DNA of 54,020 nucleotides from Bacillota bacterium. GTDB lineage: Bacteria; Bacillota_I; Bacilli_A; MAG-NZ. The notes beneath the pieces were generated by a model, which saw only the letters and a program-made list of their open reading frames with translations, did not search any database and was not told where the DNA came from. The stretch is from positions 1,519 through 55,538 of the forward strand of contig CBFHOU010000001.1 of assembly GCA_965657695.1 (NCBI GenBank). The letters run 5' to 3'. Numbering within the stretch: position 1 is the stretch's first letter; the number at the start of each line of letters is the position of its first letter. Shown here piece after piece: positions 1 through 51,788 of this stretch. The translations under genes and the position numbers were made by a program.

Positions 1-810
1 TCCATTCAACAAGTCGTTATTAATGCGGTCTATCAAAACCAAGCGTTTACGAAAAAGGCTGTAGCGGTCTTAGAAGATTCCTATCCAAAAATCATTGCGG
101 GCTCCGCATTGCTCGGACAAGCCAGTGATGCTCCGGTCACCATTGTGACCAATCAACAAGCATTGAAATTGCTAGCAGAGCAAGATGGAATTAACGTGCA
201 ATGGGTGAAGCCTGTGGCGCATAAAGCGTGGGAATATCAGGCACTAAAAGCCATTGCGAAGCAAAAAGTTCCATTTAATCCCCTCGAAATCGGACTGTTA
301 TTTACTACCTCTAGTGTGGCAAAAGCAGTTTATGATGCGGTGGAAGAAGGAATCCCCTATACGCAAGTTGAAGTTCATTTAATGAGCGATGATGATTTTA
401 CAATGATTGATGTACCGATTGGCACTTCGATCTCGGACGTCTTAGGGCAACTAAACAAACAAACCAATTCAACGGACCAATGGTTTAGTGGAAGTGTCTT
501 ATATGGCTCTCCCTACAAGACAGATCAGTTCGTTGTATCGGATCAAGCGTTTGATATCGGGGTGACGAAAAACGTCATCACAGAAGATGTTTGTATTAAA
601 TGTGGTTTATGTAACGATGTTTGTCCGGTTGGTATCTTGCCACAAAACATCATGGATGCTGAAATTCGTGAAGTTGAGGACCGCATCTATGATTATAAGG
701 TCGACCAATGCGTTGAGTGTGGCTTATGTAGTTATATTTGTCCATCGGAAATTAATGTCTTAGAATGGCAACGCCGTGCGAAACGACGCGTTGCGAGAGG
801 AGTAGAATAA
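1..810 (+). CDS. rnfC: Rnf complex subunit C, C-terminal part (5' end outside window)
   Basis: Frame 1 is open from nt 1, so the track start at 109 is an artefact. Two CxxCxxCxxxCP ferredoxin motifs are present (CIKCGLCNDVCP, CVECGLCSYICP). It is the first gene of a coupled rnfC-D-G-E-A-B order. Confidence 0.85.
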   Translation, partial: SIQQVVINAVYQNQAFTKKAVAVLEDSYPKIIAGSALLGQASDAPVTIVTNQQALKLLAEQDGINVQWVKPVAHKAWEYQALKAIAKQKVPFNPLEIGLLFTTSSVAKAVYDAVEEGIPYTQVEVHLMSDDDFTMIDVPIGTSISDVLGQLNKQTNSTDQWFSGSVLYGSPYKTDQFVVSDQAFDIGVTKNVITEDVCIKCGLCNDVCPVGILPQNIMDAEIREVEDRIYDYKVDQCVECGLCSYICPSEINVLEWQRRAKRRVARGVE

Positions 811-1877
811 TGGCTCTTCGTAAAGCACCGTATCGTTATCAACCACAAAAAACTCGACATATCATGCGCTGGTTCCAAGTTGTATTAGTTCTTCATTTAG
901 GGGCTTCTGTTGCGGTTGCCGAACTCGGTGGTTATGATGGACTACGCGGACTGATTAGTGCAGCAATTGCGCTTGTGGTCGGACTTGCAGTGGAAGTTGG
1001 GTTTTATATTAGTTGGAACCGCTTTGAATCACTTTCGAAATTAATCAACGAAAAACATCCCTTTATAACCCCACTACTTGTCGTCTTGCTACTCCCATTA
1101 CATACACCGTTTTATATTATTGGGATTTCAACCTTAGTGGCCGTATGGATTGGCAAGCTCGTCTTTGGTGGATTTGGCTATTCAATCTTCAATAATGCGG
1201 TGGTAGGTGTCTTATTTGCGTATGTTAGTTTCGCGAATGATCTTGCGTTCCCATTAATTCAAGCGCCTGGATACAATTATCCAATTGAATTACTAAAAGT
1301 TGCAACGTTTGCTAATTCTACCGTTGGCTTTGATTTACAATCGTTATTCCTAGGTGGTAATTACTACATGGTATCGCTAGGTGCAATGTCTGGCTTGGCC
1401 GTTGTTATCTCGTTTTTGGTGTTGAGTTTCATACGGGTGATTGACTGGCGAATTAGTGTTGCCTTTGTCGCTGCTGTTTACGGGATGAGTTTCATTGCTG
1501 GGGGTCAAACCTTGGCCATGGAAATGATCCTTTCCGGTTTAGTTCTTGTTGGGGCTGTGTTCTTTGTTTCGGACCCAGTCACCTCACCAACAACCCGTAA
1601 CACGAAACTATTGTATGCCGTTGTCGTTGCCTTAATTACCGTTATGATTCGGATACTAGGGGATGCAACGGAAGGGGTTTTATTTGCCGTTCTTATAGGA
1701 AATGTAATTACTCCTTTCATGAATCGATCTGCTCGAAAAAGTTCATTTGTATCTTTTGTCCAAATGGTATTGATTGCTGCGGTTATCACCGTAACATCTG
1801 GATACGTAATTCAATTAGCGATGCAACCTGAAACGCTGGAGGTTGCTAGTTTGGAGGTTCTGGATGAAACACTTTAA
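810..1877 (+). CDS. rnfD: Rnf complex subunit D (polytopic membrane protein)
   Basis: The ATG at 810 overlaps the rnfC stop (TAATG) and follows GAGGAG. The protein is highly hydrophobic with multiple TM segments and an RnfD/NqrB-like FFVSDPVTSPTT segment. Its position in the rnf order fits. Confidence 0.9.
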   Translation: MALRKAPYRYQPQKTRHIMRWFQVVLVLHLGASVAVAELGGYDGLRGLISAAIALVVGLAVEVGFYISWNRFESLSKLINEKHPFITPLLVVLLLPLHTPFYIIGISTLVAVWIGKLVFGGFGYSIFNNAVVGVLFAYVSFANDLAFPLIQAPGYNYPIELLKVATFANSTVGFDLQSLFLGGNYYMVSLGAMSGLAVVISFLVLSFIRVIDWRISVAFVAAVYGMSFIAGGQTLAMEMILSGLVLVGAVFFVSDPVTSPTTRNTKLLYAVVVALITVMIRILGDATEGVLFAVLIGNVITPFMNRSARKSSFVSFVQMVLIAAVITVTSGYVIQLAMQPETLEVASLEVLDETL

Positions 1878-3366
1878 AATTATCTTTGTCCTGAGTCTTA
1901 CCGTCGTGTTATCGATGGTGGGTGTCTACATGGTAGAAGGCTATACAACGCCGATTATTCAGGCTCGTTTAAACGAGGCAACAAATGCAGCGTTGTTAGA
2001 GTTTTTCCCCACCGCAGATGAAGCATCAAGCTATGAAATTACGGATCAATATCCTGACGATCCCATTATTACGAATATTTATTTACTTCCTGTTGATGGT
2101 GAACCTGCAGGGGTTGTGTACCGTGGTGTATTTGCTGGATACCAACAAGGGATTGAAGTATTACTCGCCCTTAGCCTCGACTCGGAAGAAATTATTGGGA
2201 TAACGGTTCTAAGAAACTCGGAAACTGCAGGCCGTGGGAAAGACTTATTAGAAAGCCCCGCGTTCTTAGCACAATATCAATCCGCATCGTTATCTACAGT
2301 GCGTGACGATGGCGTGGATATGCCGGCTGGAACCAGTGCTCCAATTACATTAGGTGGAGTAAACCGATCGATCCGTTCGATGCTAATTTATCACGGGGTT
2401 AACTTCCTAGGATTGGAAGCCCCCGTCGAAGAAACACCCGAGGACATTAAAGAACGATTACTACTAACATGGTTCGGGGAAAGTGCGACATTTACGGACA
2501 TCCCTGTGGAAGCGAATATCCCCGTAATCGAACTGAAAGAAAGTTCGACAGGTGGGTTTTATCTCATCGCAACATTCAAAGGTAGTGGGGGTCCAAGCGG
2601 AGAAGGAATCACGCAGTATATGGTTGGATTCAATAACAATACCATCCTTGGATTAGAAGCTCTTACCATCGGTGAAACACCCGAATATGGTGGAGTCTAT
2701 ATGACCAATAGTGAATTTAAAGAACAGTTTATTAATGTTGATGTTGAACAGTTTATTACCAATGGACTAGATGCCTATACCGGTGCAACTGTAACACGAG
2801 TCGCATTCGATCAAGCACTCTATCAAATCTTAAATTATGTCCAAACTCAATTACTAGGGTTTGATACACCGACAGAACGTGCCATTGATGATGAAGTAAT
2901 GGCAGCACTTGATGATATGTTTGAAGGTGTTAGCTTTACCAACGAATCGATTAAATCAGGTAGCATATACGGTGTGTTTACTGGACGTGTAAACGATATC
3001 GTCGAGGCTGTGGTGTATTACATTGTCCATGACAATGGAGGAACCACGTCCATCTATAACAACTTGGTGAATCACTCGTTGATTCATATCAATCCAACAA
3101 CGGGAGCCATTGAAGAGCTTCGCGTGATTCGAAACAATTCATCTTATACGACTCATTATCCAGAGACGGACAAAGGGGTTGAACTTGACGGAGTTGATAT
3201 GAGTTTCCTTCGTGGGATCTCAGCACCAGGAAATGTAAGCCGTGACGACTTTGATGTAATGAGCGGTGCAAGTACCGAACCCGGTTGGGATACCATGCCG
3301 GCATTAGTCGAAGCGATTGATCAAGTATTAACGTATCAACAACAGCATCAAATAGGAGGTTCGTGA
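1864..3366 (+). CDS. rnfG: RnfG-like subunit, unusually long (500 aa), with an N-terminal TM anchor plus three FMN_bind-type modules
   Basis: The ATG at 1864 follows GGAGG. The N-terminus MKHFKIIFVLSLTVVLSMVGVY is a TM anchor. It sits between rnfD and rnfE. There are three ET-x-G motifs and three D-x-x-[STA]-G-[AT]-[ST] sites. Confidence 0.8.
   Translation: MKHFKIIFVLSLTVVLSMVGVYMVEGYTTPIIQARLNEATNAALLEFFPTADEASSYEITDQYPDDPIITNIYLLPVDGEPAGVVYRGVFAGYQQGIEVLLALSLDSEEIIGITVLRNSETAGRGKDLLESPAFLAQYQSASLSTVRDDGVDMPAGTSAPITLGGVNRSIRSMLIYHGVNFLGLEAPVEETPEDIKERLLLTWFGESATFTDIPVEANIPVIELKESSTGGFYLIATFKGSGGPSGEGITQYMVGFNNNTILGLEALTIGETPEYGGVYMTNSEFKEQFINVDVEQFITNGLDAYTGATVTRVAFDQALYQILNYVQTQLLGFDTPTERAIDDEVMAALDDMFEGVSFTNESIKSGSIYGVFTGRVNDIVEAVVYYIVHDNGGTTSIYNNLVNHSLIHINPTTGAIEELRVIRNNSSYTTHYPETDKGVELDGVDMSFLRGISAPGNVSRDDFDVMSGASTEPGWDTMPALVEAIDQVLTYQQQHQIGGS
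2095..2397 (+). repeat. RnfG FMN_bind-type module 1 (degenerate flavinylation motif)
   Basis: Sequence GVVYRGVFAGYQQGIEVLLALSLDSEEIIGITVLRNSETAGRG ... VDMPAGTSAPIT. The AGTS motif lies at 2326-2337. Confidence 0.5.
2548..2847 (+). repeat. RnfG FMN_bind-type module 2 (canonical TGAT site)
   Basis: Sequence GGFYLIATFKGSGG...ILGLEALTIGETPEYGG ... LDAYTGATVTRVAFDQAL. The TGAT motif lies at 2779-2790. Confidence 0.65.
2995..3333 (+). repeat. RnfG FMN_bind-type module 3 (canonical SGAS site)
   Basis: Sequence AVVYYIVHDNGG...IEELRVIRNNSSYTTHYPETDKG ... FDVMSGASTEPGW. The SGAS motif lies at 3262-3273. Confidence 0.55.
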
Positions 3367-4007
3367 TGGATCAAACTGTTAAATTAGGTAGCGTCTTCAA
3401 AAATGGAGTCCTGACGAACAATCCAACCTTTGTTCAGTTTTTAGGAATGTGTCCAACCTTAGCAGTTACCTCCCAAGTAAATAGTGCGCTTGGTATGGGG
3501 ATTGGGGTTGTGTTTGTCCTCGTGTTATCCAACCTTTCGATTTCATTAATTCGTAATTATGTGCCAACGGAGATTCGCATCCCGGTATATATTGTAGTGA
3601 TTGCGGCACTGGTAACCATCTTAGAGATGTTTATGAATGCATTTACACCAGCGTTGGCCGCAGAGTTAGGTACGTTCTTAAAATTGATTGTAGTTAACTG
3701 TATTATCTTGGGTCGTGCTGAAGCGTTTGCGCAAAAGAATGGTCCGATTGCCTCAGTTGTCGATGGATTTGCGATGGGACTTGGGTTTACAGGTGGACTT
3801 ACATTGTTAGCGATTTTCCGTGAAGTCTTTGGATCGGGATCATTTATGGGCAATGAAATTAGTTTGATTGCCAGCAACAATTTTCAACTAAGTCTCTTAA
3901 CTGGACCGGCAGGAGCGTTCCTTGTCTTTGGACTCCTTGTTGCTCAGTTGACAAAATACCGTCAATATAAAGCCGATAAAGAAGCTTCTCAGGAGGTGAT
4001 TGCATGA
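3366..4007 (+). CDS. rnfE: Rnf complex subunit E
   Basis: The ATG at 3366 lies 6 nt after AGGAGG and overlaps the rnfG stop (GTGATG). It is a polytopic membrane protein with N-terminus GVLTNNPTFVQFLGMCPTLAVT, typical of RnfE/NqrD. Confidence 0.9.
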   Translation: MDQTVKLGSVFKNGVLTNNPTFVQFLGMCPTLAVTSQVNSALGMGIGVVFVLVLSNLSISLIRNYVPTEIRIPVYIVVIAALVTILEMFMNAFTPALAAELGTFLKLIVVNCIILGRAEAFAQKNGPIASVVDGFAMGLGFTGGLTLLAIFREVFGSGSFMGNEISLIASNNFQLSLLTGPAGAFLVFGLLVAQLTKYRQYKADKEASQEVIA

Positions 4008-4579
4008 ACTTAATCGGCATTGCCTTCGGGGCAGTCTTTGTTTCTAATGTTGTACTAGCTCAATTTTATGGATTATGTTCATTCTTGGGCGTATCCAAGA
4101 AAAAAGGTCCGGCGTTCTCCATGGGAATGGCGGTTACTTTGGTTATTACCTTAAGTACGATGATTGCATGGGCGTTAGACTATTTCATTTTGATTCCCAA
4201 CAACCTTCGATATTTAAATACGATTACCTTTATTCTTGTCATTGCTGCGTTTGTACAATTGGTGGAGATGTCGATTAAACGTTTTAGTCCCCCACTCTAT
4301 CAGTCGTTAGGCGTCTATTTACCTCTCATTACAACCAACTGTGCCGTATTAGGGGTAGCAATCGACTCGACTCAAAAACTAAGCTATAACTTTACTGAGG
4401 CTACCACGTATGCATTATTTATTAGTTTAGGCTATGCGTTAGTGATTTATTTGTTCAGTGCCATTCGAGAAGAAATGGATGCCTATGACGTCCCTCGTAA
4501 TTATCAAGGACTGGGTGTCGCATTGATTACAGCCTTTATCCTAGCTATGGCCTTCTCAGGATTTGGAGGTGTTGTATGA
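4004..4579 (+). CDS. rnfA: Rnf complex subunit A
   Basis: ATGA overlap with rnfE and a preceding AGGAGG. The hydrophobic 191-aa protein contains LGVYLPLITTNCAVLG, typical of RnfA/NqrE. Confidence 0.9.
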   Translation: MNLIGIAFGAVFVSNVVLAQFYGLCSFLGVSKKKGPAFSMGMAVTLVITLSTMIAWALDYFILIPNNLRYLNTITFILVIAAFVQLVEMSIKRFSPPLYQSLGVYLPLITTNCAVLGVAIDSTQKLSYNFTEATTYALFISLGYALVIYLFSAIREEMDAYDVPRNYQGLGVALITAFILAMAFSGFGGVV

Positions 4580-4881
4580 CCGTTGTCTTAACCCTTGCCT
4601 TTTCATTGAGTATTTCATTGGCGGTTATTTTATCGTTTGCCTCTCAAGCACTACATGTCCCTGAGGACCCGCGTCTCAACGATATTATTAATTTGTTACC
4701 CCTTGCTAACTGTGGTCAATGTGGAAATCCTGGCTGCAAAGGGATGGCAGAAGCCATCTTGTCAGAAAATACGCGCTTAACGTCCTGCAAGCCAGGCGAC
4801 CAAGCAATGCGCGAACGTATTCGGGATTATTTAGAAACTCATCCTGATGAAGAAGGAAGCTTTGTTAAGGTTAAAATGTAA
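4576..4881 (+). CDS. rnfB: Rnf complex subunit B, short form (N-terminal TM plus a single Cys-rich Fe-S domain only)
   Basis: ATGA overlap with rnfA. It has an N-terminal TM helix followed by NCGQCGNPGCKGMAEAI...TSCKPG (Cx2Cx4Cx16C). It ends at 101 aa with no CxxCxxCxxxCP ferredoxin repeats. Confidence 0.75.
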   Translation: MTVVLTLAFSLSISLAVILSFASQALHVPEDPRLNDIINLLPLANCGQCGNPGCKGMAEAILSENTRLTSCKPGDQAMRERIRDYLETHPDEEGSFVKVKM

Positions 4882-5309
4882 TGAAAAGAATTTTTGCACT
4901 AGTTCTTGTTGTATTTCTTGTTGCCTGCGAACAAGCCCCGTACCGAATGGATAATTTGGATGATTACATCCTTGATCCTGATGTTCAAAAAGTGGATGTT
5001 CGCGGTCAAAGTGAACGCCTTGCGAATGGATATGTGGACCGTTTCCAGTCGATTGCTCTGGTGGAACTGTTAGGTCAAAGCGCAATTGATTTGTCGAATG
5101 GGTACAATTTTGAACCAGAAGATATTCTCAACGAAGTATTGATTCGGTCGCTATTTGATGAAGATGCTGAAGCGATTGTCATCATGTGTAATAGCGGAAC
5201 CAGAAGCCGATATATGGTCAGAGTCCTGGTGCACTTAGGCTATGATAATGTTTATAATCTAGGAGCATACAGTAATTATAACGGTGCGTATTTCATTAAT
5301 GGAGCATAA
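4881..5309 (+). CDS. Rhodanese-domain lipoprotein (exported sulfurtransferase-like)
   Basis: The ATG overlaps the rnfB stop (TAATG). The signal peptide carries a lipobox (MKRIFALVLVVFLVAC). A rhodanese active-site loop is present (IVIMCNSGTRSRY...GYDNVYNLGAY). Confidence 0.8.
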   Translation: MKRIFALVLVVFLVACEQAPYRMDNLDDYILDPDVQKVDVRGQSERLANGYVDRFQSIALVELLGQSAIDLSNGYNFEPEDILNEVLIRSLFDEDAEAIVIMCNSGTRSRYMVRVLVHLGYDNVYNLGAYSNYNGAYFINGA

Positions 5310-5331
5310 AAAAAGCCCGGTGGGCTTTTTT
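5309..5331. terminator. Bidirectional intrinsic terminator between the rnf-rhodanese and hyd operons
   Basis: AAAAAAGCCC-ggt-GGGCTTTTTT: a GC stem flanked by an A-run and a T-run. Both convergent stop codons touch it. Confidence 0.8.
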
Positions 5332-7105
5332 ATTTGTTAATGAATGATTTGTCTTGATAGGTTGTATGGAAATATCGCTTTGCCTTCATACTTCGAGTTT
5401 GATCAACAAGTTGTTGGTACGCATTTTCTTGATCCGTCGTCGGCAATGGATTAGGGTCATATCGTTTCGATTGAAGAATGCTTTCTTGACGAAGACTAAC
5501 TACATCAAGACCACTTCGGTATTCTTCACGTAGGATGGGTTGACCACCACCATTGAGGCATCCACCTGGACATCCCATGAGTTCAACATAGTGGTAGGTA
5601 ATGCCTTGGTCTTGTTGAACGCGTAGATAATCCATCATGTCTTGCATGTTTTTACCCCCATGGGCTTTTGCAAGACGCAATGTATGATTCCCAATTGTTA
5701 CGGTTGATTCCAGCAACTCTGGATAACCATCAATGGGCGTGTAATTGAATTCAATAGTTGATTGTCCTGCTGCACGGTTTGCAACGCGCAGAATTCGTTC
5801 CATCAATCCCCCATCAAGAGATCGAAAGCCATGCGATTGATCGAGTCGATCAACAGGTGAATTCCATTCAAAGGCTGGCATTGAATCAACATCGATTCGA
5901 GCTTTGCGAATCATTCGTGCAATTTCACGTGTTGTTAAGACGGCATCCACATTACGTAGACCATCATTCACCATGTCATCACGGTCTGATTCTGACTTAT
6001 GAGCCGTACAAGGAGAAATCGTCACAACATAGAGTTTAGTGGCATTAATCTTATAGGCATCATGAGCAAGGAATGATTTAAGTAGTGTTCCTTGTAACAT
6101 ATGAGGTGCTTTGGCTGTTGAGATATGGTCCAGCATCTCAGGATGATTTTGTTCTGCATAACGAATCCACCCAGCGCTACAAGAACTGAAAAGGGGGAAT
6201 CGTTCCGGAGCATTTTCCAGCGTATCCATTAATTCTGCTGCTCCTTCGAATACTGCGATATCTTCAGCGATGGATGTGGTAATAACATCATCAAAGCCTA
6301 AGGCTTTGATGGCAGATAAGATTTGACTTTCAACTTCATCGACATTTGTCCCGATATCATAACCAAAATCTTCCCCAATGGCTGCTCGAACCGCTGGGTC
6401 TACTTGGGCAACCACAAATCGATTTGGATCACGAAGAGCTTCTTGCACGTCTTGGATATGATCCTTTTCAACAATTGCAGCCGTTGGACAGACTTTCGCA
6501 CAAAGGCCGCAGCCAATACAGTTCACTTCATCCAAACTGCCTTTTCCAAAAATTGGAGAGATGACACTATCATAGCCACGTTCCATATATTCTAAGACGC
6601 CAACGCCAGCGATTTGATCACACACTGCAATACAAGAAGAACAGTGAACGCATTTGCTGGAGTCTAATACAATGGATGCAGATTCATTAAGTTTCAGATC
6701 TTTACCTGCTAAATCAAAGCTATGTTTGTATACATCGTCTACATTATATAAACGCATTTGATCAAATAAATCACAGTTTTTTTCCCGTGGACACGTCCAG
6801 CAATCAAACGAGTGATAACTTGCAAGAAGTTCTAATGATTGTTTGCGTGAATCGTAAACACGATCCGTCTCCGTGTTTACCACCATACCCTCAGTAGCCT
6901 CTAAGGTACACGTTGTTTGAAGTCGTGACCCGTTTACTTCAGCGACACACATACGGCATGCGGCAACGTCGTTGAGGTCTTTCAAATAACATAATGTAGG
7001 CATATAGGTTCCTTGAGCTTGAATCACTTCAAGGACATTACTTTTATCTGCCACCTCAATCGATTGACCGTTGACAGTAATGGAAATCATCTTTTGTTCA
7101 CTCAT
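5330..7105 (-). CDS. hydA: [FeFe]-hydrogenase large subunit homologue (HydA-like) with non-canonical H-cluster motifs
   Basis: The ATG at 7105 follows AAGGAGG and overlaps the hydB stop (ATGA). It has an N-terminal 2Fe-2S Cys pattern, HSFDCWTCPREKNC, two 4Fe-4S motifs (CVHCSSCIAVC, CIGCGLCAKVCP), and an H-domain with ELMGCPGGCLNGGGQP. Confidence 0.85.
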   Translation of the reverse strand: MSEQKMISITVNGQSIEVADKSNVLEVIQAQGTYMPTLCYLKDLNDVAACRMCVAEVNGSRLQTTCTLEATEGMVVNTETDRVYDSRKQSLELLASYHSFDCWTCPREKNCDLFDQMRLYNVDDVYKHSFDLAGKDLKLNESASIVLDSSKCVHCSSCIAVCDQIAGVGVLEYMERGYDSVISPIFGKGSLDEVNCIGCGLCAKVCPTAAIVEKDHIQDVQEALRDPNRFVVAQVDPAVRAAIGEDFGYDIGTNVDEVESQILSAIKALGFDDVITTSIAEDIAVFEGAAELMDTLENAPERFPLFSSCSAGWIRYAEQNHPEMLDHISTAKAPHMLQGTLLKSFLAHDAYKINATKLYVVTISPCTAHKSESDRDDMVNDGLRNVDAVLTTREIARMIRKARIDVDSMPAFEWNSPVDRLDQSHGFRSLDGGLMERILRVANRAAGQSTIEFNYTPIDGYPELLESTVTIGNHTLRLAKAHGGKNMQDMMDYLRVQQDQGITYHYVELMGCPGGCLNGGGQPILREEYRSGLDVVSLRQESILQSKRYDPNPLPTTDQENAYQQLVDQTRSMKAKRYFHTTYQDKSFINK

Positions 7106-8472
7106 GCATTTGCCTCCTTGAAGCATTTGCCACAGCGGCAGTGACGGTCACGGATATGCTCTATGAATTCGTCTTCAAAACTGTATAGAGCCGAATACAT
7201 CGTCATTCCCATCGCAACGCCTAATCCGCAAAGTGAAGCGGAACGCATGTGTTCAGCTAGGTCTTTCATCTTTTGTAAATCATCCATGGTCGCTTCACCT
7301 TGAATGATTTTCTCAAAGAATTGAGTCATTTTTCGAGTTCCTGCACGGCATGGGGTACAGCGACCACAACTTTCAATGGCAAGTAGGTCCACATTAAAGT
7401 GCATGAAGTGCATGAGACAAGTTGAATCATCAAGGAAGACCGTTCCGCCCGAACCAACCATAACTTGACGTTCTTTAAATAGATCGAACCTGATTGGCAT
7501 GTCAATGTCATCGGGTCCAAGCATCGTAATGTTTGGACTACCTGTTACAAAGGCTTTGAACTGACGGCCCTCACGAAGTCCGCCTCCCAGTTCAATTAAC
7601 TCTCGGATTGTTGTCCCAAGAGGGACCTCAACCGTTTTTGGCTCTCGTAATTGCCCGGTAAGCGTAAACACTTTTGTACCCTCACTGCCTTCAACACCAT
7701 AGGACGAAAACCATTCTCCACCGTTTAGTATTATTTGAGGAACGACCCCTAATGTCTCGACGTTATTGATGATGGTTGGTTTATTAAACAACCCTTCAAT
7801 AGCTGGGAATGGCGGTTTATTTTTGGAGTTCCCACGGAGTCCTTCGATGGAGGAAATAATGGCGGTTTCTTCTCCACAAATGTAAGCTCCTGCCCCGCGG
7901 TACATGATGACTTCAAAATCAAAGCCACTTCCCATGATGTTTTTGCCTAATAGATTTTTTTCTTTGGCTTGCTCAATGGCGTGTTCCATGACGCGTTGTG
8001 CTTCCGGATACTCATAACGAATGTATACATACCCAATAGTCGCCCCAGTTGCAAACCCAGCGATGACCATTCCTTCGATACAACTATGGGGGTCTTGACG
8101 CATAATAACACCATCAATGGTTGCTGCTGATTCTCCTTCATCGGCATTCATGATGATGTAGTGTTGTTGGTCGGATTCTTTTACAAAACTCCATTTTGTT
8201 CCGGTGGGGAATCCACCTCCGCTACGTCCTTTGAGGCCCGATTTTTTGACTTCACCAATTACGGACTCGGGCGTCATGGAAAAGAGCACTTTATGCAGTG
8301 CTTTATACCCATCACGAGCAATATATTCCTCAATAGAGTAGGGATCGATAATGTAGGCATTTTTCAGTTTGATATGGACTTCTTTGTCTTTATTGTGACG
8401 AAGGTCTACATTAAATTTCGGCCCAACTTTGGCTAAAGTTTCTTTTTGAATTCTGTTTAATTCTTGAATCAT
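7102..8472 (-). CDS. hydB: NuoF-like NAD(H)/FMN-binding flavoprotein subunit (HydB-like, minimal form)
   Basis: Motifs GRSGGGFPTGTKW, ADEGESAA, YICGEETA and ESCGRCTPCRAGT. GGAGG precedes the ATG. It overlaps the hydC stop. Confidence 0.9.
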   Translation of the reverse strand: MIQELNRIQKETLAKVGPKFNVDLRHNKDKEVHIKLKNAYIIDPYSIEEYIARDGYKALHKVLFSMTPESVIGEVKKSGLKGRSGGGFPTGTKWSFVKESDQQHYIIMNADEGESAATIDGVIMRQDPHSCIEGMVIAGFATGATIGYVYIRYEYPEAQRVMEHAIEQAKEKNLLGKNIMGSGFDFEVIMYRGAGAYICGEETAIISSIEGLRGNSKNKPPFPAIEGLFNKPTIINNVETLGVVPQIILNGGEWFSSYGVEGSEGTKVFTLTGQLREPKTVEVPLGTTIRELIELGGGLREGRQFKAFVTGSPNITMLGPDDIDMPIRFDLFKERQVMVGSGGTVFLDDSTCLMHFMHFNVDLLAIESCGRCTPCRAGTRKMTQFFEKIIQGEATMDDLQKMKDLAEHMRSASLCGLGVAMGMTMYSALYSFEDEFIEHIRDRHCRCGKCFKEANA

Positions 8473-8942
8473 TTGTCGGCCTCCAGTTTTGCTAATTCAT
8501 TACGTAATTCATCCATGCTGATGTGTTTATGAATGTGGTGATCAATTTCAACATTTGGCGAGTGCTCACAACGTCCGAAGCATCGTCCAATACGAAGACT
8601 AATATGCCCATCATCACGAGTTTCATGAGGTTCCACCCCTATCACTTCACTTGCTAGCTTCAATAATCCTTGACCATCTTGCATATAACATGAAGTTCCC
8701 AAACAGACTTCTACAACATGTTTTCCTAAAGGTTCCGTTGTAAAGTAGTCATAAAAGGTTACAATGCCACTGACACGAGCTACCGAGACGTCCATAACCT
8801 CTGCGATAATCTTCTGCGCTTCAACAGGGACACAACGAAACATATCTTGTGCGACATGAACCGCCGGCAGTAAACCATCGGGTCGGTTTTGGTAAACCGT
8901 TACTTGTTCTCTAAATTTTTGTAATTCTTCAGGTTGGTACAT
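8469..8942 (-). CDS. hydC: NuoE-like thioredoxin-fold [2Fe-2S] subunit (HydC-like)
   Basis: Motifs VCLGTSCYMQDG ... GRCFGRCEHSPN. The ATG at 8942 follows GGAGG. The upstream ATG at 8954 lies inside that RBS. Confidence 0.9.
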   Translation of the reverse strand: MYQPEELQKFREQVTVYQNRPDGLLPAVHVAQDMFRCVPVEAQKIIAEVMDVSVARVSGIVTFYDYFTTEPLGKHVVEVCLGTSCYMQDGQGLLKLASEVIGVEPHETRDDGHISLRIGRCFGRCEHSPNVEIDHHIHKHISMDELRNELAKLEADK

Positions 8943-9029
8943 AGGAACCTCCATCCTTTATAGTGTAACGAATAAACATGAGGATTAGTTTGAGCAAAAT
9001 CAATCATTTGACGAATTAAACATATCTCA

Positions 9030-9049
9030 AATGTAACATATGTTACATT
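9030..9049. promoter_or_regulatory. Perfect 20-bp palindrome in the divergent hydC / lipoprotein intergenic region (candidate operator)
   Basis: AATGTAACATATGTTACATT is exactly self-complementary. It lies about 90 nt upstream of hydC and about 60 nt upstream of the lipoprotein gene. Confidence 0.4.
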
Positions 9050-9079
9050 AATGGTTTCGTTGTTGTGTGTTGGCTAAGG

Positions 9080-9088
9080 TGATATAAT
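9080..9088 (+). promoter_or_regulatory. Extended -10 element (TGaTATAAT) upstream of the lipoprotein gene
   Basis: TGATATAAT lies 22 nt before the ATG at 9110. AGAGG is the RBS. No good -35 is present (TTGTTG at 17-nt spacing). Confidence 0.35.
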
Positions 9089-9109
9089 AGGAGAGCATTT
9101 AGAGGTCAC

Positions 9110-12100
9110 ATGAAAAAGCTAATAATCATAGCTGTTACGTCGTTTTTACTTCTTAGTCTTGCTGCCTGCGACACGGAACTTGTCGACATTCCGATTAATC
9201 CAGAGCCCGCTCCAGAGGTGGTTGAAGAAGAACCGGAAGTTAATGAGAATCCACCCGTTCAGACTGAACCAGAACAAGAGACGATCACTCCGGAAGTTAC
9301 TCCTGAGGTAGTCATTGAATTTATCGATCGTTTCATCGAAGTTCCGGCTGAGGTAGAACGTCTTCGTCGCTATCAACCCGGAACATATATGGCAGCTGAG
9401 CCAAGCCCTAATTCTCAAAATGGGCATGTTTTTGTTGTAGTTATGATTGATGATTATGGCTTTATCTCGAGTGTATATATTGATCAAACCATCTCGACCC
9501 GTGTGTTGTTTGTGAATCCATCGGGTCTCGTATACACCTTTGTTCAAGGAAATAATGTAAATATTCCTGACTCGTACCGTTTAATTGATGTGTCTCAACC
9601 GGTGTCTATGTATCCAACCGTTGATGATGCCATCCGTGTAACGGATTTAGTAGTGGGTATTGACAATACCGAAATTCGCCGTCTTACACGAACTGTGGTC
9701 AATGAGACCAAGCAAATTGGCTCGGACCGAGTCGTTGTTACCTCATCATTGTCGTATGAGGAACAAATGACATTAGTTGCTGATAAGGTGGTTCAGGACA
9801 ATACAACCTATGGATTTAATTTAATTAATCAAGGCAATATTGTCACAACAACAAGTATTCCTAATATTGACCAACCCCTCGATATACCGTTATTTCTTAT
9901 CCAATCTATCCTTGATGGCCCTGCAACGCTTTCATCTACAACATCTCTTCGTTCCTTAGATACCCCTCGTTATGGTGAGTATCAACCAGGACTTTATGTT
10001 GAGTACTCTCCAGCATTCGTCGAAAACGATGGGATTAATCATGCGATTAGTCTGATTGGTGTTGACCGATTTGGGCGGATCTTCTCAAGCTATATTGATG
10101 AAACGGTAGGGTCCACCGCTCGAACTGGAGTCTTTTCTTCCAAGCAAATCCTTGGGGATGCTTTTCCGGTGAATGGGTCCGATGCGACCTGGTCGCGCCA
10201 AGCAAACTCCATAAGTCAACAGATTATCTTTAATCAAGGAGTTGAAGGATTTACCTATCAACTCATTGGTGCACAGGGAAATGTGTCGAACATCTCGTAT
10301 CCATTTACAACATCATTACCGGTACAGCTTTCGAACCTTGAAGGGAGCGTCGTACCTGTTAACCACTTCATCGAAGCTGTTAATAATGCCTTAAGTAATG
10401 CTCGATTTGGTCACTACATTGACGGCGTTTATAACGTATTAGCTACAGATGGGTCTAATCAGTTTGCAATAGTAACCATCGAGAACAATACCATCATCGA
10501 CATTTATGTTGACCGATTCATTCGTTCATCTCAAGCGAGGTTATTCCGTCAAAATCAAGAAGTATCCTTAGAGAGCTTTCCTCGTTCCATCGGGACATTA
10601 ACCGCAACGAGAACGGTTCAAATTCCGGTATACCGTATTGGGTCCAGTTATTACTTTGCATCGAACCTAACACACTTAGGAAATGTTCCCATTATTGGGG
10701 AACAACAAATTACCCAAGATCAATTGGTTACATTATCTCTTCAAGAACGTGATCAATTATCCCCCGTATCTGCGGTTCAAACTTCGAGATTTTTAAAAGA
10801 CGTTGACGCATTACAAGCGCAATGGGTCCAACAAACCGATCAAGTCATTTCTCGTCTTGTCGATGCGGGAACAACAACGAGTTTCTTCCTATCAAATGGA
10901 CGGTTTTTGAGTTTAGTATCTGAACAATCGATTCCGGTTGAAAGCATCTTTAACCTAGTAACTAAAGCACTCTATCAAGCGAGAACCGAAGGCAATGCTG
11001 TTACAAATCTTGGTAGTAGTCTTGTTGATGTCCCCATTGCCGATGGCTCTTATGTCGCATTTCAAGCGCCAACATCAACAGGAGAAACTCCGTACTCCTA
11101 TATGATGGTTCGCAGTGGTCGAGTCGTCACTTGGGTTGTTGATCGAACACTGCTTCGCGGCGAAACCATGACGTCGATCTTATTAAGTTCAAGCTCTGTT
11201 GATACCTCTAGACAACGCGAAACTACTTCGTTAATGCAGCATTTACTCGATCAACAAACTGCCGTCATTTCTAGCACCATTGTTGATCCACTTCCAAACC
11301 TTACATTCCTCTCAGTAAGAGGACAGTCTGTATTCTCATCGACAACTTATGCCGATGAGATCTATGCTCAAATTGAATCCATTGATTCGGTTGTTCAACA
11401 AGCTGCTAGATCGCGACTAAATCAAGATATGCAAACCATTCAAGCGTACTTTGAATCGAATCCTAATACGTTTCCAACGCAACCATTAGTTGCCTTTCAA
11501 ACAAAAACTAGGTGGGTACCCTCAATCTTAAGTTTACCGACATTAAGTGCCAATTACCGCTTAGAATGGTCATCACCGAGTCGTGATATCGATATTGAAT
11601 TAGAGGGGCTGGGGTATACGTTCAGTGTGGAACAAGTGGCTGAAAATATAACAGTTCCTGTAACTGTGGACGTCTTCTTAGCCAACTCAAATCAACCGTA
11701 TCTGAATTTTACGTATGACTTGAATGTGATTCGTCGCTTTACAAATGGGCAACAGATTCTAAACGATGACACCTTTGATTTCCCAAGCCTTCGATTACTT
11801 GAAAATACAGCCTTCAATTTACCAACATCAAGTGAAGTTGATGTACGCTGGATAAGTTCGAATACAAACGCAATCTCTGCAGCGGGTCAGACGGTGGCTA
11901 CCAATGTTCCATTAACAGCAACGTTAACCGCTTATGTAGATTTGGATGCGAATGCGCAACAAGGACCCAATGAGCCATTTCGTGAATACAACATTACCGT
12001 ACTCCCTCGAGCCCAAGCGGTAGAAGAAGTGATTGCGAGACTAGACACCAACCAAATTGTTGAATACATTGATCCCGTTCTTGTCTTAGGTACAGACTCG

Positions 12101-12916
12101 AGTGTTTGGGGAATCACCTATACATGGAGCAGTTCGAGTCCTCAAGTTCGAATCTCGACCGTTTCTGGCATCTCGACATTAACCATTGGTAAACTCGATT
12201 TCCAGCAAGACGTTCCGATTACTGCAAGATTTAATTTACCCAATACAACCCATGCCGTCAGTTATCGTCTGGATGCGGGGAGGGTATCGATTTATGAGGA
12301 ATTTACATCGCTAGATATGCCCGAAGTTACGACTTCAAATACAATGATTCCGGGTCAAGCACTATTCAGTCCGCTTGGAAGTCGTGGTCTGCGTTTTGGA
12401 AGTGAGTTGTCCTTTATTACTACCGATTTTGGACGCTTTGTGAACACTAGTGGTGTAATCATTTATCAACATCCAACCGAAGACGCTTGTTTTGATCTTC
12501 GATTAACGGCGAACTATTCAGGTGGCATTACTAACTACTCACAAACAATTGAAGAGCCCTTCTGTGTTATTTCAACCAGATCACTTCAGACAAGATTAAA
12601 TGCCGATCGTAATCAAGTTCGTGATATTGTGATCGATTTATCACTCAATAACCACCGCGACCGTGTCATAACCTTACCGGTTATCGGTGATGTTTATGGA
12701 TACCCACTGATTTGGTCTGTTAATGATTCAGAAATTGTCGACCCAGCGCTATTTGATACAAGCGCATTATCAAGTGGCGTTTTAACGGTAAAAACATCGA
12801 ATCAAGATTTCACTACCACCGACGATCTTGTGCTGACTTTAACGGTTGAGGTTCCGCTATTTGGAGGGGCATACCAACGGGTTACCAAAAACATAACCAT
12901 CGACATTAGAGAGTAG
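9110..12916 (+). CDS. Giant repeat-containing lipoprotein (1268 aa), function unknown
   Basis: Signal peptide with lipobox (MKKLIIIAVTSFLLLSLAAC), followed by an acidic Pro/Glu linker. Then come four FMN_bind-like modules and about five Ig-like modules with W-x-S-S signatures. Confidence 0.9.
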   Translation: MKKLIIIAVTSFLLLSLAACDTELVDIPINPEPAPEVVEEEPEVNENPPVQTEPEQETITPEVTPEVVIEFIDRFIEVPAEVERLRRYQPGTYMAAEPSPNSQNGHVFVVVMIDDYGFISSVYIDQTISTRVLFVNPSGLVYTFVQGNNVNIPDSYRLIDVSQPVSMYPTVDDAIRVTDLVVGIDNTEIRRLTRTVVNETKQIGSDRVVVTSSLSYEEQMTLVADKVVQDNTTYGFNLINQGNIVTTTSIPNIDQPLDIPLFLIQSILDGPATLSSTTSLRSLDTPRYGEYQPGLYVEYSPAFVENDGINHAISLIGVDRFGRIFSSYIDETVGSTARTGVFSSKQILGDAFPVNGSDATWSRQANSISQQIIFNQGVEGFTYQLIGAQGNVSNISYPFTTSLPVQLSNLEGSVVPVNHFIEAVNNALSNARFGHYIDGVYNVLATDGSNQFAIVTIENNTIIDIYVDRFIRSSQARLFRQNQEVSLESFPRSIGTLTATRTVQIPVYRIGSSYYFASNLTHLGNVPIIGEQQITQDQLVTLSLQERDQLSPVSAVQTSRFLKDVDALQAQWVQQTDQVISRLVDAGTTTSFFLSNGRFLSLVSEQSIPVESIFNLVTKALYQARTEGNAVTNLGSSLVDVPIADGSYVAFQAPTSTGETPYSYMMVRSGRVVTWVVDRTLLRGETMTSILLSSSSVDTSRQRETTSLMQHLLDQQTAVISSTIVDPLPNLTFLSVRGQSVFSSTTYADEIYAQIESIDSVVQQAARSRLNQDMQTIQAYFESNPNTFPTQPLVAFQTKTRWVPSILSLPTLSANYRLEWSSPSRDIDIELEGLGYTFSVEQVAENITVPVTVDVFLANSNQPYLNFTYDLNVIRRFTNGQQILNDDTFDFPSLRLLENTAFNLPTSSEVDVRWISSNTNAISAAGQTVATNVPLTATLTAYVDLDANAQQGPNEPFREYNITVLPRAQAVEEVIARLDTNQIVEYIDPVLVLGTDSSVWGITYTWSSSSPQVRISTVSGISTLTIGKLDFQQDVPITARFNLPNTTHAVSYRLDAGRVSIYEEFTSLDMPEVTTSNTMIPGQALFSPLGSRGLRFGSELSFITTDFGRFVNTSGVIIYQHPTEDACFDLRLTANYSGGITNYSQTIEEPFCVISTRSLQTRLNADRNQVRDIVIDLSLNNHRDRVITLPVIGDVYGYPLIWSVNDSEIVDPALFDTSALSSGVLTVKTSNQDFTTTDDLVLTLTVEVPLFGGAYQRVTKNITIDIRE
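9371..11479 (+). repeat. Four divergent FMN_bind-like modules inside the lipoprotein
   Basis: Module starts are YQPGTYMAAE..VVVMIDDYGFISSVYIDQT (9371), YQPGLYVEYS..GVDRFGRIFSSYIDET (about 9971), YIDGVYNVLA..IENNTIIDIYVDRF (about 10406) and IADGSYVAFQ..RSGRVVTWVVDRT (about 11036). Confidence 0.5.
11507..12913 (+). repeat. About five Ig-like surface repeats (LP..x..W-x-SS...LTA...V type) inside the lipoprotein
   Basis: Recurrent signatures: YRLEWSSPSRDI, LPTSSEVDVRWISSNTNAISAAGQ..PLTATLTAYV..YNITVLP, ITYTWSSSSPQVRIS, PLIWSVNDSEIV..LVLTLTVEV..ITIDI. Confidence 0.55.
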
Positions 12917-12952
12917 ATTTAAAATAAGATTAAAAAAAATCGATTAAAAAAA

Positions 12953-12981
12953 GAAAAAAGCCTTGAGATACGGCTTTTTTT
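12953..12981 (+). terminator. Weak intrinsic terminator after the lipoprotein gene
   Basis: AAAAAAGCC-ttgagatac-GGCTTTTTTT: a short GC stem extended by A:T pairs, followed by a 7-T run. Confidence 0.4.
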
Positions 12982-13010
12982 CTAGTACTATTTATATTTG
13001 CAGGCAATGA

Positions 13011-13070
13011 AGTGCGAGGTTGCTGACACACTAGGGGGCGTTGCCATTGTCCCGGTCAGGTTTTCGCATC
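13011..13070 (+). promoter_or_regulatory. Structured 5' leader upstream of rpsJ (candidate S10-operon autoregulatory leader)
   Basis: Nested complementary segments: GCGA..TCGC (13014-17 / 13064-67), CTGAC..GTCAG (13023-27 / 13055-59), and GGG..CCC plus GGC-gtt-GCC inside. It ends about 40 nt before the rpsJ ATG. Confidence 0.3.
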
Positions 13071-13107
13071 GAGCTAGCTAATCCAGATATTAGTGAGAGG
13101 AGTATGT

Positions 13108-13410
13108 ATGGCAAATAAAATTCGTATCAAACTTCGTGCATATGATCATATGGTTATTGATCAATCCGCGATGAAGATTGTCGAGACGGCGAAGAAAACC
13201 GGATCGGATGTAGTGGGACCTGTTCCATTACCAACTAAAAAAGAGGTGTTTACAATTTTACGAAGTCCTCATGTTAACAAGGACTCCCGTGAACAGTTTG
13301 AACGCCGCACACACAAACGAATGATTGATATTGTGAATCCAACACCACAAACAATTGATTCGTTAATGCATCTAGACCTCCCATCAGGGGTCGAGATCGT
13401 AATTAAGTAG
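13108..13410 (+). CDS. rpsJ: 30S ribosomal protein S10 (uS10)
   Basis: N-terminus [14 protein letters not shown]. The ATG follows GAGAGGAG. It is the first gene of the S10 operon. Confidence 0.97.
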
Positions 13411-13422
13411 AGGAGTACAGAC

Positions 13423-14052
13423 ATGACTAAAGGAATCTTAGGACAAAAACTCGGTATGACACAAATCTTCAACGAAGAAGGAATCCTTGTGCCAGTGACC
13501 GTGATTGATTGTAACCAAAATGTTGTGCTGCAAAAGAAATCGGTTGAGATTGACGGGTATGAGTCGGTTCAAGTCGGATACGGGGTTAAACCCGAACGCC
13601 GTGCGAACAAACCAGAACTTGGGCATCTCAAAGCGAGTGGCTCAGCACCTAAGCGCTTCGTGAAAGAATTACGTATGACTGACATGTTGGAATATGAAGT
13701 CGGTCAAGAAGTCCCTGTGACAATTTTTGAACCCGGCCATGTGGTCGACGTTCAAGGAACATCAAAAGGGAAAGGATTTACCGGTACCATTCGACGTAAC
13801 AACCAATCTCGAGGACCAATGAGTCACGGTTCGAGATATCATCGTCGACCAGGTTCGATGGGTCCTGTTGCTCCTAACCGAGTGGCAAAAGGGAAGATTA
13901 TCCCAGGGCAAGAAGGTCACAAGACCGTCACCCTTCAGAATTTAGAAATCGTCAAAGTGGATGCAGAGCGTGGTCTCTTATTAATTAAGGGTAACGTTCC
14001 GGGTCCTAATAAATCATTCGTAAGCATCAAACACGCCGTGAAAGGTCAATAG
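13423..14052 (+). CDS. rplC: 50S ribosomal protein L3 (uL3)
   Basis: N-terminus [16 protein letters not shown], and operon order. Confidence 0.97.
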
Positions 14053-14069
14053 TCAGAAAGGAGCGTATC

Positions 14070-35444: not shown

Positions 35445-35474
35445 AAAAAAAGAAGACCGGTTCGGTCTTTTTTT
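35445..35474. terminator. Bidirectional intrinsic terminator
   Basis: AAAAAAAGAAGACCG-gtt-CGGTCTTTTTTT, between convergent degV and chrA. Confidence 0.8.
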
Positions 35475-51760: not shown

Positions 51761-51773
51761 CTCGTCCTTTTTT
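51749..51773 (+). terminator. Intrinsic terminator overlapping the cupin stop codon
   Basis: GGACGAGT-ata-ACTCGTCC followed by TTTTTT. Confidence 0.8.
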
Positions 51774-51788
51774 GTTACAATACTTCGT

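Follow-up and report, generated by a model that had tools for sequence, protein, structure and literature searches.

The window analysed here is the whole 54,020-nucleotide (nt) stretch of contig CBFHOU010000001.1 (assembly GCA_965657695.1, positions 1,519 to 55,538, forward strand). Its host is an uncultured member of Candidatus Izemoplasmatales, a wall-less marine lineage, and near-identical sequence occurs in marine plankton, seawater and estuary metagenomes, while environmental metatranscriptome assemblies (RNA runs X10-X12) include window 1-13000 at ~98 % identity. The subject is an operon at the start of the window that encodes a relative of Rnf, the ferredoxin:NAD+ (nicotinamide adenine dinucleotide) oxidoreductase. 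The encoded complex is a predicted Rnf derivative in which both classical substrate modules, one for NADH and one for ferredoxin docking, are gone and the ion-coupled core is kept. Window 1-5309 carries seven consecutive genes on the forward strand in the order rnfC 3' part-rnfD-rnfG-rnfE-rnfA-rnfB-rhodanese. The altered subunits of this operon are referred to as variant RnfC, RnfD, RnfB and HydA. The features are as follows.

1-810 (+): variant rnfC, 3' part, the last 269 of 395 codons; Fer4 families only
810-1877 (+): variant rnfD; PF03116, E = 5e-53
1864-3366 (+): rnfG, 500 codons, the likely start being the ATG after GGAGG; FMN_bind and rnfG family matches
3366-4007 (+): rnfE; TIGR01948, score 222 vs cut-off 213
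4004-4579 (+): rnfA; Pfam/NCBIfam family match
4576-4881 (+): variant rnfB, 101 amino acids (aa); transmembrane (TM) helix and PF04060 four-Cys domain
4881-5309 (+): rhodanese lipoprotein, 142 aa, start overlapping the rnfB stop (TAATG); PF00581, lipobox
5309-5331: hairpin terminator with A-run and T-run flanks, common to the convergent rnf and hyd operons

The genes overlap by 1-14 nt at every junction (TAATG, ATGA and similar). Pfam and NCBIfam scans placed each rnf gene in its expected Rnf family, with the subunits in the order C-D-G-E-A-B, and found no NAD(P)-binding domain in the whole operon. Against the curated NCBIfam cut-offs, RnfE passes, RnfA (227.8/229.3) and RnfB (67.4/68.7) fall marginally below, and RnfC (160/246, TIGR01945), RnfD (138/207, TIGR01946) and RnfG (60/102) fall far below. 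The full operon has nine genes, X-hydA-rnfC-rnfD-rnfG-rnfE-rnfA-rnfB-rhd, of which the window holds the last seven. The part upstream of the window is supplied by contig L038, which is 98 % identical to window 1-14435 and encodes X (117 aa), variant HydA (558 aa) and then directly RnfC (395 aa). The identical upstream arrangement is present in locus L006 (80 % DNA identity to the window). An initial annotation, made from the window sequence, had drawn a translationally coupled operon within 1-5309; the coupling stands, and the extent does not, as the operon begins further upstream with X, hydA and the missing 5' portion of rnfC. RNA-library contigs extend 1.0-2.3 kb upstream of the window start and end at the terminator, and metatranscriptome contigs stop at 5299-5304 and restart at 5347-5454, on either side of it. 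The contig depth in run X12 is ~80 over rnf, 41 over hyd and 26 over the lipoprotein gene that follows, contig depth being only a rough guide to expression.

Searches anchored on RnfG, on RnfB and on an alignment of X yielded ~30 related loci, including one in the cultured strain Xianfuyuplasma coldseepsis zrk13, whose genome is complete and which has the same operon. Every sufficiently long locus encodes X, HydA, variant RnfC, RnfD, RnfE and RnfA together with a long RnfG, a short RnfB and one or more rhodanese lipoproteins. The three features that the initial annotation had linked, long rnfG, short rnfB and rhodanese, do therefore co-vary within this family. RnfG in these loci has 499-781 aa and mostly two to five flavinylation-type motifs per full-length protein, RnfB has ~100-127 aa (open reading frame (ORF) lengths), and each locus has one to three rhodanese lipoprotein genes. 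Type I loci, which are window-like, have msrB upstream and the rhodanese after rnfB. Type II loci, which are X. coldseepsis-like, have upstream a divergent gene for ApbE as well as genes for a small FMN_bind-like protein and a rhodanese, and a convergent rhodanese gene downstream. A genome-collection scan with RnfG returned one locus only, beginning inside rnfG, and an exact-sequence look-up of the window RnfD returned no record (the RnfA look-up did match).

Variant RnfC keeps two CxxCxxCxxxCP [4Fe-4S] motifs, CIKCGLCNDVCP and CVECGLCSYICP, whose eight cluster Cys are invariant in the family. The last 269 residues of the L038 RnfC are identical to the window fragment at 268/269 positions. Neither the window fragment (269 aa) nor the full-length orthologues matched PF01512 or SLBB, even at E = 0.1. 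Alignment of five orthologues to 7ZC6_C and 9ERI_C revealed that the flavin mononucleotide (FMN) and NADH motifs GxGGAxFPT, NGAECEPY, YPQGAEKQL, QNV and GGP are deleted or replaced; the replacements vary among orthologues and the positions are not conserved in the family. The initial annotation had described RnfC as an NADH-side subunit with its two 4Fe-4S motifs. The motifs are indeed kept; the NADH side is not intact, all NuoF-like FMN/NADH motifs having been lost. We are confident in predicting that variant RnfC is not an intact NADH subunit and that no NADH is bound there.

In variant RnfD the flavinylated Thr is replaced by Tyr. The D-x-V-T-T-A-T-P-L segment of Clostridium tetanomorphum and Acetobacterium woodii aligns to QAPGYNYPI, and the ApbE motif is missing from RnfD in all 20 of the 20 family members aligned. 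Where A. woodii RnfD has its riboflavin ligands, the Asn and the Asp are retained. PF03116 is the sole family match, and the C-terminal extension is a TM helix with no PF00175 fusion. This extra helix (window 1740-1877) does not occur in C. tetanomorphum or A. woodii, and its coding sequence ends in a 14-nt overlap with the start of rnfG.

Variant RnfB is composed of the TM helix and a single PF04060 [4Fe-4S] domain, and has no polyferredoxin part. Its close homologues are all of similar length (87/87 are 101-116 aa), whereas known RnfB proteins have three to six, or eight, clusters (PMC11889175). By comparison with the A. woodii structure, variant RnfB matches helix TM1 and the mobile B8 domain. 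B8 is the terminal-cluster domain, which slots in between RnfA and RnfE and there reduces the [2Fe-2S] centre of the two, and the B1-B7 polyferredoxin missing here is the presumed ferredoxin docking site (PMC11889175). The absence of the docking part, claimed in the initial annotation, is hence confirmed. The Cys ligands of the intramembrane [2Fe-2S] centre, with positions assigned after PMC11889175, are kept in RnfA (YGLCSFLG, TTNCAVLG) and in RnfE (LGMCPTL, VVNCIILG), and are invariant in six orthologues. The C-terminal tail of variant RnfB, E-x-G-x-[FY]-x-KVKM (window 4840-4881), does not vary among orthologues whose identity is otherwise ~60 %, which suggests a docking peptide for some partner.

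Single-cluster RnfBs with the same tail form at least 20 distinct 50 %-identity clusters (~100-118 aa) and are common outside the Izemoplasmatales-type family. Some of them belong to operons in which RnfC is intact and RnfG is normal (190 aa). In the short-RnfB operon of L012, RnfD is fused to two FMN_bind domains and its gene lies beside that of an FMN_bind-fumarate-reductase-like protein. The idea that the short RnfB is unique to the present system was rejected, as it is found in otherwise ordinary Rnf operons. Because single-cluster RnfBs occur with intact RnfC and normal RnfG, the short RnfB alone is not diagnostic of outward electron flow; the initial annotation, which had counted it as a sign of such flow, is contradicted on this point, the B8 domain moreover being kept. 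We also rejected a separate small gene as the carrier of the missing ferredoxin domain, since no 2x[4Fe-4S] ferredoxin is encoded by the 65-73-aa ORF before other short rnfB genes, whose product is a TM helix with a Cys-rich tail. The RnfBs in question, of ~105 aa with a single cluster and a tail [HT]P[GN]xDG.., are widespread outside Izemoplasmatales (L011:4410-4955, L041:8798-9318, L040:708-1237, L012:6217-8004). They are usually preceded by the 65-73-aa TM/Cys-rich ORF, sometimes with ApbE and a NusG_II-domain gene next. A literature search on short or truncated RnfB returned nothing relevant, and no description of a single-cluster Rnf subclass was found.

RnfG has an N-terminal membrane anchor followed by three extracytoplasmic FMN_bind modules (~aa 50-185, 190-335 and 340-500). 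Aligned by hhalign, module 1 matches module 2 at 98.8 % and module 3 at 81 %. The AlphaFold2 (AF2) model (predicted local distance difference test (pLDDT) 74) has three repeated strand/helix (beta/alpha) modules behind one N-terminal membrane helix, and its best Foldseek matches are RnfG, NqrC and CbFMN4, a domain of a multi-flavinylated protein. The triplication of RnfG stated in the initial annotation is confirmed. Each module carries a motif related to the flavinylation consensus D-x-x-[ST]-G-A-[ST] (PMC12052999).

2317-2337 (+): module 1, flavinylation-like motif DMPAGTS, off consensus at two positions
2770-2790 (+): module 2, canonical flavinylation motif DAYTGAT
3253-3273 (+): module 3, canonical flavinylation motif DVMSGAS with Ser as acceptor

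In more distant orthologues the module 1 motif reads DFVSGAT, DGISGAT or DGLSGAT. Immediately ahead of X lies the gene for another RnfG-like protein, of 423-566 aa (L038:1774-3474; L006:4343-5614). This second protein has an RnfG-type N-terminal anchor, multiple (three) FMN_bind modules and an immunoglobulin-like domain, and its motifs in L038 are DSLAGVS, DANTGVT and DTYTGAT. The locus is predicted to encode ~six extracytoplasmic flavin sites. ApbE adjoins the locus in L004, L008, L009 and Type II metagenomic loci.

The two genes upstream of rnfC encode a hydrogenase-derived Fe-S module. X corresponds to the C-terminal [4Fe-4S] domain of NuoF/HydB (PF10589); it has four invariant Cys and is 39 % identical to residues 347-435 of the HydB encoded next to the operon in the window. 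Variant HydA is 37 % identical to the neighbouring HydA. It keeps the [2Fe-2S], the His-ligated [4Fe-4S] and two ferredoxin-type [4Fe-4S] motifs. The reference H-cluster motifs are TSCCPxW (L1), MPCxxKxxE (L2) and ExMxCxxGCxxG (L3). In variant HydA they are replaced by TSSNAGW, PSTAAKYE and MFGGLINGGGQP, respectively, and the TIGR02512 score is 249 vs a cut-off of 406. Because no Cys remains in L1, L2 or L3, variant HydA of the window lineage should lack the H-cluster irrespective of which L1 Cys (TSCSPGW vs TS[ST]CP) is the ligand.

The H-cluster loss is seen in L038, L006, L002, L004 and L016-18, that is, only in the window sub-lineage, while the operon HydA of most lineages keeps the ligands. 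The operon HydA of L019 and L030 has the canonical motifs TSC[SC]PxW, MPCTAKKYE and FMACPGGCVNGGG, and that of L019 passes TIGR02512 (group A [FeFe]-hydrogenase). The ligands are largely kept in Type II loci, where most HydA proteins have Ser/Thr for the first L1 Cys (TS[ST]CP). The window sub-lineage also has a separate, adjacent hydCBA operon; no hydCBA neighbourhood is present in the Type II loci L008 and L009. The ancestral machine was probably an Rnf core with a hydrogenase in the place of the NADH site. With the hydrogenase there, RnfC could lose its flavin, and the HydB cluster domain X would be present as an adaptor.

The last gene of the operon encodes a rhodanese with the lipobox FLVAC and the active-site loop CNSGTRS, which is of the CX4R sulfurtransferase type and reads C[NG]SG[TA]R[SA] in orthologues. 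Its PF00581 score is 26.7 vs a cut-off of 22.2. The lipobox predicts export, in agreement with the added exported rhodanese of the initial annotation. In Type II loci, a domain of ~130 aa, hereafter RhodC, is fused to the downstream rhodanese (L008:10504-11829 (-), L009:10642-12045 (-)); this domain ends in D-x-x-A-G-V-[TS] and has a weak FMN_bind match (E = 0.0034). This end could be a divergent flavinylation site. Taking the operon together, we are very sure of its architecture as described.

The operon is followed in the window by a hydrogenase-like operon and a large lipoprotein gene.

5330-7126 (-): hydA, divergent [FeFe]-hydrogenase large subunit; TIGR02512 score 349 vs cut-off 406
7102-8472 (-): hydB, minimal NuoF-like FMN/NADH subunit; alignment to A. 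woodii HydB (599 aa) over its residues 114-538
8469-8954 (-): hydC, NuoE-like [2Fe-2S] subunit; Pfam/NCBIfam
9110-12916 (+): lipoprotein, 1268 aa; two homologous N-terminal modules (aa ~80-285 and 286-432)

The hyd operon (5330-8954) is directly adjacent to the rnf operon, as the initial annotation had it, and convergent to it, and an S10 ribosomal-protein operon lies downstream of the lipoprotein gene. The neighbouring HydA keeps the H-cluster Cys pattern, with SSCSAGW as L1, and scores below the curated [FeFe]-hydrogenase cut-offs. The neighbouring HydB has neither of the terminal Fe-S domains found in bifurcating HydB, the [2Fe-2S] one at the N-terminus and the 2x[4Fe-4S] one at the C-terminus. 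The encoded HydABC may be non-bifurcating or in need of another partner.

The two modules of the lipoprotein match each other by hhalign at 97 %, and module 2 matches RhodC at 97.6 %. An unnamed domain family of ~130-200 aa is thus repeated in the lipoprotein (window 9347-10405) and fused to rhodanese in Type II loci. Matches of the lipoprotein modules to the RnfG modules are not significant (<=12 %), the lipoprotein has no Pfam family, its self-BLAST found no repeats, and a Pfam search of the lipoprotein and RhodC domains gave no FMN_bind match even at E = 10. The initial annotation had described FMN_bind-like repeats in this protein; the repetition stands and the FMN_bind likeness is not supported. 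The single-sequence AF2 model of aa 80-432 (pLDDT 31) was unusable, and the homologue search for this region returned one near-identical protein. The window lipoprotein is without the D-x-x-A-G-V-[ST] motif, and its orthologue in L004 has the motif and adjoins ApbE. The lipoprotein can be tied to the system because its modules share a domain family with the rhodanese fusion and its L004 orthologue adjoins ApbE.

Further genes are recorded as side observations. In L038 and other Type I relatives, a microbial rhodopsin gene (PF01036) is located ~3 kb, or three to four genes, upstream of the operon and outside the window (L038:354-1142 (-); also L002, L003, L006 and L007), which would be a light-driven pump in a wall-less fermenter from plankton and estuary samples. 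Window 39028-41973 encodes a NusG_II-domain protein followed by two energy-coupling factor (ECF)-type ABC ATPases and a CbiQ/EcfT component. Genes with the NusG_II domain are found beside the Rnf-variant locus of L008 and of L009 as well, and next to ApbE in L041; they may be linked to flavin trafficking. Three genes of the ChrA family (PF02417), one full-length and one split pair, lie within 17 kb (35473-36567 (-), 51747-52872 (+)).

We tentatively read the locus as an Rnf-derived complex that is not a ferredoxin:NAD+ oxidoreductase and would carry ferredoxin-level electrons to an outer flavin chain and a sulfur acceptor. The parts of this explanation are not equally strong: a net outward flow of electrons is probable, while sulfur as the acceptor is possible and rather doubtful. 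One-electron donors at the ferredoxin level would enter via the Fe-S module of X and HydA, directly at the RnfB cluster, or both, and H2 might be a donor in those relatives in which the HydA of the operon has retained its H-cluster ligands. The electrons would cross the membrane via RnfA/E, possibly also via variant RnfC and RnfD. The RnfA/E crossing is the ion-coupled (Na+/H+) step in Rnf and Nqr (PMC11889175, PMC12174285). They would then reach the first flavin of RnfG and exit along the second and third. The terminal acceptor would be sulfane sulfur, carried as a persulfide on the rhodanese Cys, loaded from thiosulfate or polysulfide, and leaving as sulfide. For a fermenter, the outcome would be an external electron sink and possibly an ion-motive force. 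A sulfur-transfer Cys is placed at the end of the chain because of the invariable rhodanese lipoproteins, the fusion of rhodanese to a flavin-like domain, and ApbE. Growth of X. coldseepsis is markedly promoted by 100 mM thiosulfate, and its authors found no responsible sulfur genes (PMC8397711); neither Rnf nor rhodanese is mentioned in the supplement of that paper. In fermentative Halanaerobium, rhodaneses take part in thiosulfate-dependent sulfidogenesis (PMC5497025).

Several points weigh against this explanation. The cofactor assignments for the complex have sequence motifs as their sole basis, and the module 1 motif of RnfG, DMPAGTS, is non-canonical. ApbE, one of the genes that the initial annotation had advised looking for, was not found by tblastn in the 54-kb window, although it adjoins the locus in relatives. 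If X and HydA bridge variant RnfC and RnfB, they would close a cytoplasmic loop, and net flow would then hang on the outside branch. Because the RnfC clusters and the riboflavin-site residues of RnfD are conserved, the inward return path may still be in use, with some cytoplasmic acceptor. In the X. coldseepsis transcriptome with thiosulfate, the locus was not highlighted (PMC8397711). The organism itself comes from plankton and estuary habitats, and its close relatives have the adjacent rhodopsin, a setting where sulfur respiration is less obviously useful and which fits a role in surface redox maintenance about as well. The rhodanese could equally be a Cys-based redox relay and not a sulfur carrier.

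Of the other explanations, a divergent but working ferredoxin:NAD+ Rnf with lineage-specific decoration is scarcely credible. All six subunit families are present in canonical order, and genome papers call the locus an RNF complex (PMC8397711, PMC7301438, PMC6256511). Nevertheless, the NADH/FMN site of RnfC and the flavin site of RnfD are lost, the docking polyferredoxin is absent, and RnfC, RnfD and RnfG score far under the curated thresholds, so that an ordinary Rnf of this kind is contradicted already at the level of predicted sites. The 'two Rnf complexes' reported in some Izimaplasma genomes leave room for a canonical paralogue elsewhere. The initial annotation proposed that NADH reduces RnfC, from where electrons pass along the RnfG flavin chain to an outer acceptor; alternatively NADH could act indirectly, with HydB/HydC docking on variant HydA. 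What survives of that outward reading is the remodelling away from ferredoxin:NAD+ coupling and the chain of flavinylation sites. The NAD(H) partner does not, since all FMN/NADH motifs of variant RnfC are lost at positions that are not conserved in the family, and no NAD(P)-binding domain is encoded in the operon. The indirect form can point to the NADH-binding HydB encoded in the convergent operon of the window lineage, and to the 37 % identity of variant HydA to HydA, the usual partner of HydB. The same logic, besides agreeing with the outer flavin chain and rhodanese, exists elsewhere: L012 combines a short RnfB, an intact RnfC, outer FMN_bind proteins and a fumarate-reductase-like flavoprotein. 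However, hydCBA is absent near L008 and L009, which carry the same operon, and X stands where the C-terminal domain of HydB would be, which speaks against a binding of HydB to the same face of variant HydA. We consider electron supply from NADH by either route improbable.

An Rnf-type energy-converting hydrogenase would explain other parts of the locus. Electrons would pass from ferredoxin to variant RnfB and along a U-shaped path through RnfA/E, RnfG, RnfD, variant RnfC and X to HydA, protons replacing NAD+; or, in reverse, H2 oxidation would feed the flavins, and the window lineage would keep only the wiring. Such a machine accounts for an RnfC without FMN/NADH but with clusters and for the HydB C-terminal cluster domain X encoded beside HydA; the path (RnfA/E Cys, RnfD riboflavin residues and RnfC clusters) is conserved throughout, the H-cluster ligands of the operon HydA are kept in most lineages (canonical in L019 and L030, with L019 passing the threshold), and hydEFG is present and strongly induced in X. 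coldseepsis (PMC8397711). It cannot be the present function in the window lineage, because all four H-cluster Cys are gone, and it leaves unexplained the multi-flavin RnfG, the rhodanese lipoprotein, the ApbE association and the loss of the RnfD flavin site; most Type II HydA, furthermore, have Ser/Thr at the first L1 Cys. We regard it as distinctly unlikely. Another unlikely explanation is surface redox maintenance, in which reducing power is delivered to the outer face of a wall-less cell for the upkeep or repair of surface lipoproteins that contain Cys or Met, and the rhodanese Cys serves as a thiol relay and not in respiration. The periplasmic PspE of Escherichia coli can act as a thiol relay. 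MsrB (SelR) is encoded directly upstream of the locus in all window-type relatives, but it has no signal peptide and is therefore cytoplasmic. The plankton and estuary occurrence and the adjacent rhodopsin suggest exposure to light and oxygen, and huge surface lipoproteins adjoin the locus. E. coli Rsx, an Rnf homologue, is regulatory-reductive and not respiratory (PMC12174285). On the other hand, the rhodaneses have a CX4R loop as in sulfurtransferases, the three to five flavins of each RnfG and the presence of as many as three rhodanese genes in a locus have the look of a high-flux pathway, and thiosulfate stimulates growth of a cultured carrier. The broadest proposal, which is speculative and rather unlikely, regards the family as a new respiratory class with an Rnf ion-pumping core, an inner [FeFe]-hydrogenase (HydA plus the HydB-derived domain in place of the RnfC NADH site) and an outer wire of three to five flavins to a rhodanese. 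With H2 or ferredoxin as donor, it would reduce thiosulfate or sulfane sulfur on the cell surface in an ion-coupled reaction, or else it would evolve H2 as an energy-converting enzyme of the Rnf type; the window lineage, in which the H-cluster was lost, would then be derived.

Comparison with known systems places the favoured reading, a ferredoxin-fed outward complex, in context. Classical Rnf (A. woodii, C. tetanomorphum and Azotobacter vinelandii; 9ERI, 7ZC6 and 8AHX) is the best structural or sequence match for every subunit. Shared with it are the six homologues in C-D-G-E-A-B order, the RnfA/E Cys, the RnfB helix and B8 domain, the 2x[4Fe-4S] of RnfC, and the anchor and first FMN module of RnfG. 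Missing are the FMN/NADH site of RnfC, the flavinylated Thr of RnfD and the polyferredoxin of RnfB. Extra are two RnfG flavin modules, the RnfD TM helix, the X and HydA subunits and a rhodanese lipoprotein within the operon. As predicted from its genes, the variant is without four defining features of ferredoxin:NAD+ Rnf, namely the RnfC site, the RnfD flavin, the RnfB polyferredoxin, and C/D/G scores above threshold. Na+-NQR, an NADH:quinone oxidoreductase that translocates Na+, shares the core pairs RnfD/NqrB, RnfG/NqrC and RnfAE/NqrDE (PMC12174285), and variant RnfC resembles NqrA in being an RnfC-fold subunit without flavin/NADH site. Different from NqrA, which has no Fe-S clusters, variant RnfC keeps two; the variant also has no NqrF-like FAD/NADH subunit, and no quinone site is implied.

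Méheust et al. 2021, eLife (PMC8238504), proposed that a multi-flavinylated RnfG gives electrons a second, outward route to extracytosolic acceptors, so the outward idea is already published and is not new here. Their RNF clusters likewise have RnfG with more than one FMN_bind domain and flavinylation motifs. In the part of that paper available to us, the word rhodanese occurs 0 times, and neither the loss of RnfC and RnfD sites nor a hydrogenase module is described. Two-subunit NQR/RNF-like systems (PMC8238504, PMC10979944) also have an RnfD-like subunit without its own flavinylation site and have been proposed to export electrons one way to an extracytosolic FMN domain. Their RnfD is fused to an NAD-binding PF00175 domain and RnfA/E/B/C are absent, whereas the variant has all six subunits. 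With HydABC and the N-module of complex I, the variant shares X, which is homologous to the HydB/NuoF C-terminal domain, and a full HydA fold with the N-terminal cluster motifs. The likeness to NuoG is that of a catalytic-domain relic kept as an electron wire. Unlike these, X-HydA is without FMN/NADH domain or HydC, has lost the H-cluster in the window lineage, and is encoded in an rnf operon.

Rhodanese-based sulfur handling is familiar from the periplasmic Sud, which works with polysulfide reductase in Wolinella, and from PspE in E. coli. Points in common between the variant and such systems, including that of Halanaerobium (PMC5497025), are an exported single-domain CX4R rhodanese, a fermentative host and the stimulation of a cultured relative by thiosulfate. 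In contrast, no molybdopterin Psr/Phs or Asr sulfite reductase was seen at the variant locus. We know of no characterised precedent for a covalent-flavin chain as the reductant of a persulfide. Flavin-based extracellular electron transfer in Listeria proceeds through Ndh2, demethylmenaquinone (DMK), EetA/B, PplA and FmnB. It is similar in using membrane-anchored proteins with multiple ApbE-type flavins as outer carriers, and ApbE lies beside the variant locus in relatives; it differs in that the variant crosses the membrane via the Rnf core and not via quinone. The Listeria-type genes (Ndh2, EetA/B, demethylmenaquinone genes, PplA and FmnB), most of which the initial annotation had suggested, were not found among the window genes scanned. 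No description of an X-HydA module in an rnf operon, a dead RnfC site or a rhodanese link was found in the literature. The novelty lies in the whole architecture, conserved across Izemoplasmatales: a hydrogenase-derived Fe-S module, RnfC and RnfD without flavin, RnfB with one cluster, RnfG with several flavins, and rhodanese lipoproteins.

Rnf is taken as a ferredoxin:NAD+ ion pump in genome-based metabolic models, and genome papers on Izemoplasma label the locus likewise. Reconstructions of energy metabolism in Izemoplasmatales are probably wrong on this point, because this 'Rnf' is predicted to be unable to bind NADH at RnfC and to be wired to a hydrogenase relic and outer flavins. The hosts are abundant seafloor and plankton fermenters, and the whole marine order carries the variant. 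The variant also represents a natural modularity experiment, in which both substrate modules were exchanged and the RnfA/E-RnfB(B8) gating unit was kept. As the same operon is present in the cultured X. coldseepsis zrk13, the hypotheses are open to direct test. In this only cultured Izemoplasma the locus is a candidate for the unassigned stimulation of growth by thiosulfate, and it may be perhaps the first case of a covalent-flavin chain feeding a sulfurtransferase.

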